From a virus: a DNA stretch of 61,145 nucleotides. Made by a program: the position numbers and the translations under genes. The notes under the pieces are model-generated. The model was not told where the DNA came from. It made no database searches and saw nothing but the letters and a program-made list of their open reading frames with translations. The stretch is from UHGV virus genome UHGV-0030196; one strand, 5' to 3'. Positions within the stretch are counted from its first letter, which is position 1. Every line of letters starts with the position of its first letter. Below, piece after piece: positions 2,616 through 52,027 of the stretch.

Positions 2616-2646
2616 GTGTTAGAAAATTCTATTCAATTATCTAACA
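2616..2646. promoter_or_regulatory. Operator-like motif pair (TGTTAGAAAATT ... TCTAACA, inverted) upstream of rdgC
   Basis: Member of the repeated AATTARTTTTCTAACAY family. Confidence 0.5.
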
Positions 2647-2662
2647 TAATAGGATGTGTTTT

Positions 2663-3316
2663 CTATCCCTTCTTGAAATCAAAGTTGCTTGCGATAGCCT
2701 GGAAGGTGCCTCCAGCCTTGAAATCAATATTTTCGTCGGCTGTCACAGTAATGTTTTTGCCATTAACGCTGATGTTATCGGCTGATTTGACGTTAACACT
2801 CCCTCCCGCATTCACTACTACATCAGCCGGACCAATGATGTATATCTGCCCTGATTCATTCATTCCAATCCTTGAGCCTGCTGCCGTATTCGCTATTTCA
2901 TATCCACCGCCAGCCGTTCGCACTTCGAGCACATTGTTGCGGTGAATCACGAAATCTTTTGTCGCCGAAAATTGCGGGCGGGGAGGCGCTCCGTCTACTT
3001 CTGGTGGCGTCCAGCCGCTACCATTGCCTGACGCCTCCGGCGCGACGTTTGGTACTCCGCCAGGCGCATCCTGAGCTGCGCCAACTATCATTGGGCGTCT
3101 GGTATCAATTCGACCATTAACATCCAGATAAGGAAACTCTACCCATACCAGGTCGCCTTTTACTGTAGGTACAAACGCGTTACCTATGGGTAACAGGTAT
3201 TCTGCCCAGGGTAGATCGTCATCAGGAACGCCATTCCAGTCTGGTAAAACACGGACCTGAGCACGCATAAGCCCTGCCGGGTGCACAGTTCCAACAATTT
3301 GCGCTCTACGCTTCAT
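2663..3316 (-). CDS. Phage baseplate hub/spike-like protein (gp5/gpV OB-fold-like N-domain)
   Basis: DDLPWAEY and GDLVWVEFP motifs typical of baseplate spike N-domains; Gly-rich C-terminus; recall only. Confidence 0.4.
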   Translation of the reverse strand: MKRRAQIVGTVHPAGLMRAQVRVLPDWNGVPDDDLPWAEYLLPIGNAFVPTVKGDLVWVEFPYLDVNGRIDTRRPMIVGAAQDAPGGVPNVAPEASGNGSGWTPPEVDGAPPRPQFSATKDFVIHRNNVLEVRTAGGGYEIANTAAGSRIGMNESGQIYIIGPADVVVNAGGSVNVKSADNISVNGKNITVTADENIDFKAGGTFQAIASNFDFKKG

Positions 3317-4293
3317 TTGTTCGGCACTCCTAATATCATTCGTGTTGTGTAGCCTACGCGGTCTTCAAAGTGCGCAACATTTTTTACTATCAGCTTGCGG
3401 GGCATTGATTCATCAATGCGGTTTTCCTGGTCATAGCGGTATACGATAATCTCTATTACCATCCCCGGTTTTATATCCGGATTGCCTGCGACTTCTATAT
3501 CCATTTTGGGGACGAGAGACAGCTGCATATTGCGAAGAGTTTCCATATCAGAGTCGGATATATAACGCACTGGGAGTGAGCTATCGCCATATTCGACGTA
3601 GCCATCGGTCATGGAATACCCAACAAAACGATATTGATTCTTTGCTGTTGTCGCATGTTCCTGTTGGAGTAGGCGCATTTTGGACAAAGTGTATTCTGCT
3701 TTAGGGTTATTCCCCTCGTAGGTAAACGATGGCGTTTGCTTCATCAGATCAGCCAGGGTGTAAAAGTTAAATTCCCCCCGACATACCCAACACAATGCAC
3801 CTTTGTCTCGCGCTATCTCCGAAAGCATTTTTGACGGTTTGTCACCAGCATTCAGATGATATGTAACTGCGCGTTTTAGCACGCTGCTGGTAATTTTAAG
3901 TTTGCCGGAATATGCCTTGAATATAGCGTCTGGTGTTTTGTTGGTATGTAAATTTGTGCGCGGGGAGGGGATCTTAAACCTGCGCACGTCTTCACTGACA
4001 GCAATAACGGTAACAACATCACCAGCCAGCATTGCAGACGTAACAAAGAAATCTGTTTTAAAAGTGCCTGCATTACCGTTTGGATCGCCCATTTCAGCCA
4101 CCAGCGATGCACCGTATTTGGCTTTCCAGTCATCAATTACGGTGCCGGTAGCGTCATGAATTTCCAGTTTTAGCAAAGGGGCTTTGAGGCTGGTTTTTTC
4201 TACATATACTGCGGTAAAAATCCAGTCTCGTGGCACTTTGTTATCGTTAATGAGCACTGACTGTAGAAAATATTGTTGTAACTCCTGGGACAC
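3313..4293 (-). CDS. Hypothetical phage protein (326 aa), co-oriented with spike-like gene
   Basis: Long ORF, overlapping stop/start with neighbours. Confidence 0.5.
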   Translation of the reverse strand: MSQELQQYFLQSVLINDNKVPRDWIFTAVYVEKTSLKAPLLKLEIHDATGTVIDDWKAKYGASLVAEMGDPNGNAGTFKTDFFVTSAMLAGDVVTVIAVSEDVRRFKIPSPRTNLHTNKTPDAIFKAYSGKLKITSSVLKRAVTYHLNAGDKPSKMLSEIARDKGALCWVCRGEFNFYTLADLMKQTPSFTYEGNNPKAEYTLSKMRLLQQEHATTAKNQYRFVGYSMTDGYVEYGDSSLPVRYISDSDMETLRNMQLSLVPKMDIEVAGNPDIKPGMVIEIIVYRYDQENRIDESMPRKLIVKNVAHFEDRVGYTTRMILGVPNK

Positions 4294-4296
4294 TTA

Positions 4297-5064
4297 TCAC
4301 CCCATAGATATCGAGGTTTCGGTAATAATACGTTTTGCGTCCAGCTCCCATGCTGTGATCACGTCTGCAATCACACTTATCGGCGCTTGTGTGGCATAAA
4401 TACGCTCTTCTCCAATTGGTGCTGAAACATCCGTAAAGCCGACTTCTTTGGCATCCTGTATCGAGCAAATCAGCGGGACCGGGACACGAACAAGGTGAGT
4501 GGTTGCTTCAAATTGTGTACCTGTCATCAGGCGAAGCCGTGCGCCCAGCGAATTACACATCAGACTCATGGTCGCTTTATCAGTTGCCATTAACGTAACG
4601 TCATACGTCAGAATGCCCTGGGTGTATTCCAGTTCTGCTAAAGGCATTCCGGTATCTGGTTCGCAAAAACTGGCTACTTTTTTGCGGTCAATCTGCTGAT
4701 CATCGTTGATATAATTGATATCCATAGTGCGTGAGATATTGACCAGGGGGAGAGCATCCCGGTTAATGTTCTGGTTTTCAGGTTTTCTCCCTTGCCCGGC
4801 ATTTGCGCGACGAACTGCTTTAAGAAACTCGATCGCATTGTCGAAACGGGCCACATAGACACGCTCTGCTGGTGGACGATTCAGGAATGACGCAAAGCGT
4901 TTTTCTTCCGGCGCGGGGGCCACCAGTAAGATATCAGAAAAAATGTTGCTGATTAGCGTCGCAAACGCGTTATCCACGTTTTCAAAGCCCGTGGTCTGGA
5001 ATTTTCCTGTGCGTGAGGTTTGCCATTCACCTGTTCGCGCCAGGAGGGTTTTATTTGAAGTCAT
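4297..5064 (-). CDS. Hypothetical phage protein (255 aa)
   Basis: ORF in tight operon array. Confidence 0.5.
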   Translation of the reverse strand: MTSNKTLLARTGEWQTSRTGKFQTTGFENVDNAFATLISNIFSDILLVAPAPEEKRFASFLNRPPAERVYVARFDNAIEFLKAVRRANAGQGRKPENQNINRDALPLVNISRTMDINYINDDQQIDRKKVASFCEPDTGMPLAELEYTQGILTYDVTLMATDKATMSLMCNSLGARLRLMTGTQFEATTHLVRVPVPLICSIQDAKEVGFTDVSAPIGEERIYATQAPISVIADVITAWELDAKRIITETSISMG

Positions 5065-50461: not shown

Positions 50462-50792
50462 AGTTACGGCCTCACTAACAGGTTTAACAACCTGCTACCC
50501 GCTGTCAAACAGGTGGCAGGACGTGACAGGGTTGACAGACTGGCGTTAGTGAAACCAGCAGGCCGAAGCCTCCCCATCACGCCCCACCATAATTCGGGCG
50601 TAACGTGGTTTACGGACACAAAAATACCGCAATATCGGAAATCTGCGGTTGTCCGCACTAACATTCAGGCTGTCAAACCTGGTCGCAGAATTTGCTACGA
50701 CGGCATGAATATAAGCCTGAAAACATGGAAGATCAACTAAAAATTTCAGCAATGGATGACTTCAGTCGATGATGCAGATCATACATTCCGAT

Positions 50793-50821
50793 TTAGAAAC
50801 GGCAAATTAATTTTCTAACAC
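50793..50821. promoter_or_regulatory. Operator-like inverted motif pair (TTAGAAA ... AATTAATTTTCTAACAC)
   Basis: Family member. Confidence 0.5.
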
Positions 50822-50874
50822 AAAATGTCGAGCGAGCATTTTCCGATCATTGGGATGTTTTGTAGACGCACAGG

Positions 50875-51837
50875 TCATCCCCTAAAGCCAGCCGGGATTG
50901 ACCAATCCTCACGGTCAAATTCAGACCGATAGCCACGCTGTTTCATCAGGTCAAAGGCTTCACCAATGGTTGCACACCCCTGGGAGCCAGAATAATCCAT
51001 TGAGAAATCCAGGGCACTGGATTGTTTAGGCTTATTCACTGCGGTAGCGGCACTACGTATCCATGCAAATTTTTTTGCCAGCTTTTCAGCGGTACGATAC
51101 AGAGCCTGCCGTTTTGTGTGCCCCTCGTCTGAACGACGCTTTGCAGCTCTCGCTTTTGCCGCCGCCAGGCAGTGGTTGGTATGTTCTTCCCTGATTACTG
51201 TTTTTTTATCCAGTATCCCGTTATCCGTTTGAGAACTATCTGCTGGTGAAGCCTTTGGCTGAACCGCGCATGATCTTTCTCTTCTTTTGGCTATAGAGTG
51301 ACTCTTATTTTCTATTGGCTGTTCATTTTGAACATGGGGGGACTTGTTCAATTTGAACAGGGGGTTCCCAGTTTCAAAAAAATAACGAACCTTTGAAATC
51401 AACTGCTTAACCAGTTTTGTGGCGTTGGCAAATTTGATGCCCTGCTTACCCCCTATCTCCATTGCTACATGAATGAAGTGGAGAAATTGTGTCGTAAACC
51501 GATATACGTTACACACCTGGGCATTGTTATTCGCTACCTGATGTTGCTTAACAAGCATTCCGCACTTCGTCGCTTCAGCAAATGCCCGGCGTACAGTAGA
51601 AATACTGCGTCCTGTAATCTCGGACATATCAGCATATGAGCGACGGATCATGTATTCATCGGTAGACCCTGCCAGGTTGGCGAACTCGGCAATAATGGCG
51701 CTATGTGAAGGGGAAAGAAGACCGCTATGACGAGCAAAAAAACTCAACTGATGACCTTTGATTTTTTTGTGGTATTCAGTGTTGTTTTTATACTCAGAAG
51801 TGTTGAAAGTTACTGAAACTGAATTTAAAATATTCAT
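50875..51837 (-). CDS. HTH protein, RepL-like replication or regulatory protein
   Basis: MSEITGRSISTVRRAFAEATKCGMLV HTH; operator motif upstream. Confidence 0.35.
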   Translation of the reverse strand: MNILNSVSVTFNTSEYKNNTEYHKKIKGHQLSFFARHSGLLSPSHSAIIAEFANLAGSTDEYMIRRSYADMSEITGRSISTVRRAFAEATKCGMLVKQHQVANNNAQVCNVYRFTTQFLHFIHVAMEIGGKQGIKFANATKLVKQLISKVRYFFETGNPLFKLNKSPHVQNEQPIENKSHSIAKRRERSCAVQPKASPADSSQTDNGILDKKTVIREEHTNHCLAAAKARAAKRRSDEGHTKRQALYRTAEKLAKKFAWIRSAATAVNKPKQSSALDFSMDYSGSQGCATIGEAFDLMKQRGYRSEFDREDWSIPAGFRG

Positions 51838-52010
51838 CAGATAGTTCCGTGCAAAAATCTATCTACCGTATAAATCTATGCCAGTGGATTTATACACCAA
51901 AAAGCCGCTTCTCAGCGGCTTTTGCTTTTTTTGGCAGTCGCTACCGGAGCAGTGACCGCGATCCTACTCGATCACATCGGACAGGATCAACAGTGTATAT
52001 TAATACACTA

Positions 52011-52027
52011 TGTTAGAAATTTAATTT
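52011..52027. promoter_or_regulatory. Operator-like motif TGTTAGAAATTTAATTT
   Basis: Identical to 28791..28807. Confidence 0.5.

Follow-up and report, generated by a model that had tools for sequence, protein, structure and literature searches.

The immunity repressor C1 of phage P1 binds 22 dispersed, asymmetric 17-bp operators with the consensus ATTGCTCTAATAAATTT and controls repL and lpa (PMC8546580). Escherichia phage D6 (MF356679) is a plasmid prophage and a distant P1 relative, close relatives of which are common among E. coli and Salmonella plasmids; its GenBank record lists a "prophage repressor, similar to P1 gene C1" beside a rox site and annotates no operators. We analyzed the virus genome UHGV-0030196, a stretch of 61,145 nucleotides (the window), which is collinear with D6 at 89–98% identity, with several segments replaced. 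An earlier note made from these letters without database searches—the original prediction—had pointed to an operator-like motif scattered in front of the window's genes and, recalling the P1 consensus correctly, had proposed a P1-like operator set of distinct specificity. Our analysis indicates that this motif is very probably the operator set of the prophage's C1 repressor, a D6-lineage version of the P1 system.

The recurrence of the dispersed motif is real and lies well above chance, as had been claimed. Searches of the window with AATTARTTTTCTAACAY gave three exact matches (0.00 expected) and 14 matches with at most three mismatches (0.62 expected), a count that none of 100 shuffled sequences reached. 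A weight matrix separated 13 strong sites, at 25–32 bits, from a runner-up at 12 bits, leaving a clean gap. By start and strand these sites are 2616 (−), 2631 (+), 12155 (−), 12807 (+), 17004 (+), 28790 (−), 30191 (−), 34668 (−), 38448 (+), 38604 (+), 39856 (+), 50805 (+), and 52010 (−). Ten of the positions first proposed were right within 4 bp; 16990 and 50793 turned out to be the weak halves of pairs whose strong halves start at 17004 and 50805. The two identical 17-mers noticed in the original prediction are the copies of AATTAGTTTTCTAACAT at 12155 and 39856.

All 13 strong sites are intergenic, though intergenic DNA makes up only about 12% of the window. They occupy 12 loci—seven single sites and five inverted pairs—in separate intergenic regions dispersed over 50 kb, and are not clustered in tandem beside rep or par genes. 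Of the single sites, three are co-oriented with the downstream gene and four are antisense to it; the orientation is mixed in P1 as well, and such mixing fits an operator rather than a promoter element. A word search blind to the motif returned AATTTTCTAACA as the top repeated word both in the window and in D6; applied to the P1 genome as a positive control, the same search yielded the known C1 operator, ATTGCTCTAAT.

Placement follows the P1 pattern closely. We compared positions using the operators annotated in AF234172 and orthologues found by tblastn, and 10 of the 12 loci have positional counterparts among the P1 C1 operators, as the proposal of a P1-like scattered set implied. The P1 record annotates Odmt, Oref, Ossb, Olpa, Obanab, OpmgRa/b, Oc4, and OrepL before the matching operons, and the matches comprise the hrdC-dmt, ref, lpa, c4-icd-ant, repL, pmgS, tRNA, and isaA operons together with c1. 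The suggestion that the fronted genes form the prophage-repressed set agrees with what they are: lpa, repL, c4-icd-ant, ref, hrdC-dmt, and c1 constitute the expected early set.

The sequences of the sites, as the original prediction held, differ from those of P1. The P1 consensus has no match in the window at up to three mismatches, the P1 matrix has none in the window or D6, and the window matrix finds nothing convincing in P1, where its best score is 14 bits. When the P1 operator is reverse-complemented, only 7 of 17 positions agree with the window operator; aligning the two on TCTAA in the same strand does better, and neither alignment is statistically compelling.

The candidate repressor is a 345-residue protein encoded by c1 (30220–31257, +), between cre (28806–29834) and pacB (31329–32837). 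It is 89.6% identical to the annotated repressor of D6 (orf1) and matches phrog_1678 over its full length (E = 1.9e-158), as does P1 C1 (E = 2.6e-140). Pairwise BLASTP between the two proteins gave 22% identity (E = 1e-7); tblastn of the window protein against P1 gave no match. A Pfam scan of window C1 at E up to 1 returned no family, PF05472 included, and close relatives of the protein carry PF27008 (Phage_P7_repressor_C1). The family is small: 1.84 billion proteins contain 110 representatives of it at 50% identity. The window gene occurs in 157 PLSDB records of plasmids, the majority of them from E. coli and Salmonella. Searches by tblastn for P1 Lxc, Coi, Hxr, C8, Ant1, KilA, Ban, and Ssb found no homologues in the window, and for Lxc and Coi, searched at E up to 0.01, neither the window nor D6 gave a match. 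By these comparisons, C1 is the sole homologue of a known P1 immunity repressor found in the window.

Across the family, C1 exists in a short form (~250–285 residues, including P1) and a long form (~345–380 residues, including D6, Pantoea, and Citrobacter), the latter with an additional C-terminal helical hairpin and small helical domain (window residues ~270–345). In the core alignment R157, R159, R182, and G187 are invariant. An Enterobacter "partial C1" (H60), considered as a natural domain swap, was rejected as an IS5-truncated remnant.

The motif has changed along with the repressor in the lineages compared. D6 carries it at every position corresponding to a window site, plus one at D6 54202, outside the window; the set may already have been described in the 2018 D6 genome paper (Gilcrease and Casjens), and our full-text literature searches for the motif and for D6 operators returned nothing relevant. 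In relatives with C1 proteins 72, 52, 50, and 45% identical to that of the window, the TTTCTAACA core is retained ahead of c1, lpa, and pmgS. Two P1-like plasmids, Citrobacter NZ_CP115618 and Pantoea CP009882, have C1 proteins 28–29% identical to the window's. First word searches in these plasmids gave iteron or partition arrays and Chi; counting distinct intergenic regions revealed the operators.

Four motifs are thereby available: ATTGCTCTAAT in P1, TTTTCTAACAY in D6 and the window, AATTCTAAGGcTTT (fuller form tAATTCTAAGGcTTT) in Citrobacter, and CAATTCTAAAT (fuller form ACAyrCAATTCTAAAT) in Pantoea. Each lineage has about 12–16 dispersed sites, the TCTAA core is common to all four motifs, and the C1 proteins are 22–34% identical to one another. 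A cross-scan with the four matrices was strictly diagonal, with 13–22 matches in the home genome and 0–1 elsewhere. Sites nevertheless stand at orthologous junctions—gp5|hrdC, ref, lpa, cre|orf117, pmgS, c1, after pro, and beside the capsid gene. Constant positions combined with replaced sequence are what would be expected of the operators of a diverging repressor, and are hard to reconcile with promoters read by a shared polymerase or with mobile repeats. The distinct specificity first proposed is therefore supported, at the level of sequence, by the low identity of the C1 proteins and by two further lineages with motifs of their own.

The paired sites have a fixed geometry. TTAGA-N16-TCTAA occurs at five loci (0.08 expected), no other spacing from 0 to 30 recurs, and the inverted pairs glimpsed in the original prediction are these five. 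Each forms an imperfect 32-bp palindrome, TGTTAGA-N16-TCTAACA, with cores 21 bp apart, at 2616–2647, 12792–12823, 16989–17020, 34668–34699, and 50790–50821. We had considered the C-terminal helical extension of C1 as the cause of this geometry and dropped the idea because the equally long Pantoea and Citrobacter C1 proteins pair their sites differently. Within the asymmetric site the constrained part is TTTCTAACAY, with an AT-rich stretch 5′ of the core. Compared with a Shigella relative whose C1 is 72% identical, this 10-bp core differs at 4 of 80 positions, against 296 of 1,175 other intergenic positions (Fisher P = 5e-6).

The evidence favors a scheme in which C1 is the binding protein and binding represses. 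In a lysogen, C1 would occupy the sites and block RNA polymerase at early promoters; by analogy, one C1 monomer would be bound per half-site. The sites lie on or beside what would be the promoters of early operons for methylation and recombination (hrdC-dmt, ref) and lytic replication (repL), and the controlled sets would further include the antirepressor circuit (c4-icd-ant), the late-gene activator (lpa), the tRNA operon, pmgS, pdcB, the dut-isaA operon, and c1 itself. Binding would thus silence replication and, via lpa, the whole late program, and the site 13 bp before c1 would allow C1 to regulate its own synthesis. Because the recognition sequences differ, P1 C1 and window C1 should not cross-repress, and the window lineage would be heteroimmune with P1.

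A structural lead bears on how such a protein might read an asymmetric site. It is, to our knowledge, a long-standing puzzle how monomeric C1 binds an asymmetric operator when it has no recognized DNA-binding motif. An AlphaFold2 (AF2) model of window C1 (predicted local distance difference test score, pLDDT, 83.7) has Tus as its best and sole structural likeness, in this one predicted model. Tus, the replication-terminator protein of E. coli, binds its asymmetric AT-rich site in monomeric form (structures PDB 1ECR, 4XR0-2); it blocks replication forks at about 10 chromosomal sites, whereas C1 represses transcription of a phage regulon. The likeness is in keeping with P1 C1, which is known to bind asymmetric sites as a monomer. 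The Ter core TGTTGTAACTA agrees with TTTTCTAACAY at 7 of 10 positions and also resembles P1 TGCTCTAATAA; by our estimate the match is not significant given composition and the possible offsets. TerB lies just upstream of tus, which we verified in MG1655, comparable to the operator upstream of c1.

Other searches did not strengthen the link. Profile comparison of C1 with Tus by hhalign gave probabilities of 0.3%, 0.9%, and 7%, which are not significant, though the alignment was collinear; a BFVD fold search with the C1 model gave no match, a sequence search for a solved C1 structure found none, and full-text literature searches returned no C1–Tus link. We therefore put forward only tentatively, as slightly less probable than its negation, that P1-like C1 repressors (PF27008) are Tus-fold proteins whose monomers would read T(C/G)TAA and its flanks by interdomain β-strands, with the bases flanking TCTAA setting immunity. 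If this were true, the Tus fold would explain monomeric C1 binding to an asymmetric operator, and the taxonomically restricted Tus–Ter fork trap would be linked to phage-plasmid repressors by common ancestry or domestication; the fold would provide both a structural model for an unusual repressor and a lead on the origin of Tus.

Promoter predictions were compared with the sites. By a home-made sigma-70 score, the operator at most loci overlaps or adjoins the promoter ranked first or second. A strict consensus scan of positions 1–20000 found fewer promoter-like sites than shuffled sequence and was uninformative, so the exact promoter–operator geometry is inferred. P1 late promoters have the layout AAGTGACTT-N4-(−10): a 9-bp box, 4 nt, and a −10 hexamer. 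The window has a second dispersed motif, AAATCACAAAC-N4-(−10-like hexamer), before the tail, mat, lysozyme-like, portal, and holin operons, at 5903 (−), 10132 (−), 48759 (+), 54775 (−), 60006 (−), and perhaps 1665 (+), with −10-like hexamers GACAAT, CATAAT, CATAGT, TATGCT, and TAAGTT. These are probably the Lpa-dependent late promoters of the window's lineage; the Pantoea plasmid contains dispersed copies of a related word, AAATTACAAAC. The operator motif is without this layout and precedes early genes, and it is not taken for a late promoter because the separate AAATCACAAAC motif has that layout before structural operons.

The sites could alternatively be promoter elements, a −10 with its upstream region for host sigma-70, or targets of a phage activator. 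TAACAT resembles a −10 hexamer, TTAGAn and TAACAY lie exactly 17 bp apart in the five pairs, like a −35 and a −10, and several sites are co-oriented with the downstream gene. The likeness fades on inspection: TTAGAN matches TTGACA at 2–3 of 6 positions, TAACAC is without the invariant final T, and four of the seven single sites run antisense to what follows them (c1, pmgS, and the tRNA operon). P1 has proven repressor operators at the equivalent junctions, the element with P1 late-promoter architecture before structural operons is the separate AAATCACAAAC-N4-(−10) motif, and the operator motif is wholly different between lineages that share the host RNA polymerase. A promoter or activator element is accordingly very unlikely. 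We also tried the inverted pairs as promoters in themselves (−35 TTAGAn, −10 TAACAY), a weak candidate with poor hexamers. In AT-rich sequence of this kind one might suspect a repeat that arose by chance or from composition, a small mobile repeat, or an iteron or centromere repeat, and P1-like plasmids do carry iteron arrays, which supply the top words in the Pantoea and Citrobacter plasmids. The shuffles, however, never reach the observed count, and the sites occupy 12 separate intergenic regions over 50 kb rather than standing in tandem near rep or par; the true iteron arrays of the relatives look quite different. From lineage to lineage the sites hold their positions with the sequence replaced, and the core is conserved above flanking DNA. 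The statistics and positional conservation effectively refute a repeat of any of these kinds, which we regard as next to impossible.

A lineage-specific DNA-binding protein other than C1, such as a small phage regulator, could own the sites: the link to C1 is made by homology and covariation, any co-diverging protein would covary, and many window genes have no known function. The sites nevertheless stand at P1 C1 operator positions, including the one before c1 itself, C1 is the sole immunity-repressor homologue, with Lxc, Coi, Hxr, and C8 absent by tblastn, and an asymmetric site would suit the Tus-like, monomer-binding protein suggested by the model. Another regulator is thus very unlikely. 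Several observations weigh against the assignment of the motif to C1 as a P1-type operator: covariation across lineages alone does not identify C1, since all proteins diverge from one lineage to another; the Pantoea plasmid has no site close to c1; the strict scan of the first 20 kb placed only one promoter on an operator; and the lack of both Lxc, the corepressor, and Coi, the antirepressor, means that the window circuit is not a simple copy of that of P1. In addition, the core conservation signal from D6 alone is weak (4 of 120 core positions changed vs. 148 of 1,801 other intergenic positions; P = 0.054), and the AT-rich 5′ half of the 17-mer varies as much as background DNA and is no better conserved, so that the true footprint may differ from the 17-mer. 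C1 operators remain, on balance of the positional and lineage evidence, the reading we prefer, and the individual loci are described below in those terms.

Locus context was mapped through D6 and then checked with open reading frames (ORFs), Rfam, and ARAGORN. Most sites lie 15–200 bp upstream of start codons, as originally stated; the exceptions are 38448 and 38604, upstream of a minus-strand tRNA cluster, and 12155, which overlaps the ref stop codon. The only bivalent operator with two strong halves, GTGTTAGAAAATTCTATTCAATTATCTAACAT, comprises 2616–2632 (−) and 2631–2647 (+), between hrdC, whose ATG (2603, −) is 13 bp away, and a gene 5 baseplate homologue. It heads the hrdC-dcm-dmt operon; its P1 counterpart is Odmt, and in Citrobacter and Pantoea the gp5|hrdC junction likewise bears the motif of the respective plasmid. 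The monovalent operator AATTAGTTTTCTAACAT at 12155–12171 (−) precedes minus-strand small ORFs (homologues of D6 orf86 and orf85), and a predicted promoter, TTGAAT-16-TAACAT, overlaps it. Its D6 counterpart heads a second icd/antirepressor module that is deleted in the window, the small ORFs being what is left of it. At the junction, 11636–11667, about 1.5 kb of D6 (74000–75490) is absent, comprising the second icd and second antirepressor (orf82–84).

Next along the window, a bivalent operator with a weak half at 12792–12808 (−) and a strong half at 12807–12823 (+) occupies the divergent region between ref (−, ATG 12744) and the orf88/orf89 operon (+). Its P1 counterpart is Oref, and relatives also have sites upstream of ref (Citrobacter 37707 and 37778; the Pantoea pair 76234/76248). 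Between ppp and pdcB, a further bivalent operator (weak half 16989–17005, −; strong half 17004–17020, +) stands 42 bp before the pdcB ATG (17062), overlapped by the predicted promoter TTGATT-17-TATTTT; P1 has no operator at this junction. The monovalent operator AATTAAATTTCTAACAC at 28790–28806 (−) abuts the cre stop codon and heads a minus-strand operon of orf117, orf116, dut, orf114, and isaA homologues. The Citrobacter and Pantoea motifs occur at the same cre|orf117 junction, at 32948 and 4212, and P1 Ossb, the counterpart of this locus, heads an operon likewise ending in isaA.

At 30191–30207 (−), antisense to c1 and 13 bp upstream of its ATG, the monovalent operator ATTTAGTTTTCTAACAT is the presumed autoregulatory site. 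Citrobacter has a site upstream of c1 at 31440, and matches to the P1 consensus also occur upstream of P1 c1, whose operator is Oc1. The late-promoter activator gene lpa (ATG 34590, −) is preceded at 78 bp by a bivalent operator with its strong half, AATTAATTTTCTAATAT, at 34668–34684 (−) and its weak half at 34683–34699, the counterpart of P1 Olpa; in the relatives, lpa carries PF25716 and has sites upstream of the gene.

Two monovalent operators bracket the tRNA promoter region. AATTAGATTTCTAACAT at 38604–38620 (+) follows the pmgS stop codon directly and lies 16 bp upstream of the −35 of a predicted promoter, TTGATT-17-TAGAAT (38587–38559, −), that faces the tRNA cluster at 37381–36120. ATGTAATTTTCTAACAC at 38448–38464 (+) lies downstream of this promoter for the minus-strand tRNA operon, about 90 bp past the predicted start; the D6 version retains the core only. 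Operators flanking the promoter in this way could act by looping or as a roadblock. In P1, the counterpart is Obanab, which heads an operon with tRNA genes and tciA. The cluster itself consists of five minus-strand tRNA genes at 36120–37381 (Met, Ser-tga, Thr, Tyr, and Arg-tct by ARAGORN and Rfam). The D6 record gives three tRNAs (Ser, Thr, and Asn) on the plus strand in collinear sequence, reflecting either a differing complement or a wrong strand annotation in D6. The second copy of AATTAGTTTTCTAACAT, a monovalent operator at 39856–39872 (+), lies 14 bp upstream of the pmgS ATG (39842, −), antisense to the gene and abutting a −10-like TAAAAT. P1 OpmgRa and OpmgRb control pmgR and pmgS, and pmgS-upstream sites are found at Pantoea 18388 and, in the relative L011, at 17981.

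The bivalent operator of the immI region has a weak half at 50790–50806 and a strong half, AATTAATTTTCTAACAC, at 50805–50821 (+), and is overlapped by the predicted promoter TTGCCG-16-TATGAT. The immI operon that it heads, on the minus strand, comprises the a1b1 targets, c4 RNA, icd, and the antirepressor gene; the operator corresponds to P1 Oc4. Rfam places a single C4 antisense RNA gene in the window, at 50509–50594 (−; RF01695, 68.8 bits vs. a gathering score of 45), and a c4-a1b1 element at 50662–50714; the C4 RNA belongs to a secondary immunity circuit run from the 50790–50821 operator. The last strong site, the monovalent operator AATTAAATTTCTAACAT at 52010–52026 (−), is located in the pro–repL interval, 173 bp upstream of the start codon of repL (ATG 51837, −), like P1 OrepL, and Citrobacter has a site (11528) at the equivalent junction after pro. 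A near-perfect 18-bp palindrome, AGTGTATTAATATACACT, directly adjoins this operator on the repL side, at 51992–52009.

Two weaker sites are candidates. The "40904" site of the original prediction is really CGCTATTTTTCTAACAC at 40899–40915 (+), at the 5′ end of pmgM; it is ranked as a candidate only because it has four mismatches, the core alone being intact. It is identical in D6, and better matches stand at the start of the VRR-NUC gene in the relatives L005 (16007) and L012 (16362). The other, AATTGTTTTTATAACAT at 10218–10234 (+), is found where mat and a simB-like gene diverge, with 20 bp separating it from the ATG at 10254; it scores 14.6 bits, a D6 match at the equivalent place scores 12.3 bits, and P1 has Omat beside mat.

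Further repeats were recorded in the same searches. Chi (GCTGGTGG) occurs 48 times in the window against 1.7 expected from shuffled sequence, with two copies between the operators at 38448 and 38604, and is one of the most repeated words also in P1, in D6, and in the plasmids of Citrobacter and Shigella. The Pantoea plasmid CP009882 has a dense array of about 19 copies of ATGTTTGTAAACAT at 76.6–78.5 kb (L007/L008), and Citrobacter NZ_CP115618 has about 10 copies of TGAAAGTAACCGTA flanking repB at 53.0–54.2 kb (L010 3050–4240). Both arrays presumably represent iterons or partition sites, and by simple repeat counts they rank above the operators.

If the sites are C1 operators, their list would define the immunity regulon of the D6 lineage from sequence alone, and D6-lineage elements are predicted to be heteroimmune with both P1 and P7. 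Comparison of four lineages offers a preliminary sketch of a recognition code, in which the TCTAA core is constant and the flanks change (TTTCTAACA vs. TGCTCTAAT), and makes the evolution of immunity specificity in phage-plasmids testable.

Among the known systems compared, D6 differs in the second icd/antirepressor module, deleted from the window, in several replaced segments, and in its C1 (89.6% identity). The Citrobacter and Pantoea plasmids share with the window their gene order, the C1 family, dispersed sites (about 12–14 in each) at equivalent junctions, and the TCTAA core; they differ in the flanking bases, and the Pantoea pairs are convergent (TCTAA-N9-TTAGA). With the immC systems of P1 and P7 the window shares a homologous repressor family (phrog_1678, PF27008) and a dozen or more asymmetric, intergenic, promoter-proximal sites of mixed orientation, single and paired, that have the TCTAA core in common and would place lpa, repL, c4-icd-ant, ref, hrdC-dmt, pmgS, the tRNA operon, and c1 under control. 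It differs from P1 in the recognition sequence, such that neither matrix detects the other genome's sites; in a C1 that is 62 residues longer and 22% identical; in pairs that are divergent (TTAGA-N16-TCTAA) where P1 Obanab is convergent (TCTAA-N8-TTAGT); in being without Lxc, Coi, Ant1/2, KilA, and Ban homologues; and in extra sites before pdcB and the dut operon. The sequence comparisons support a D6-lineage form of the known C1/operator system of P1, set apart by its specificity and by some features of its architecture.

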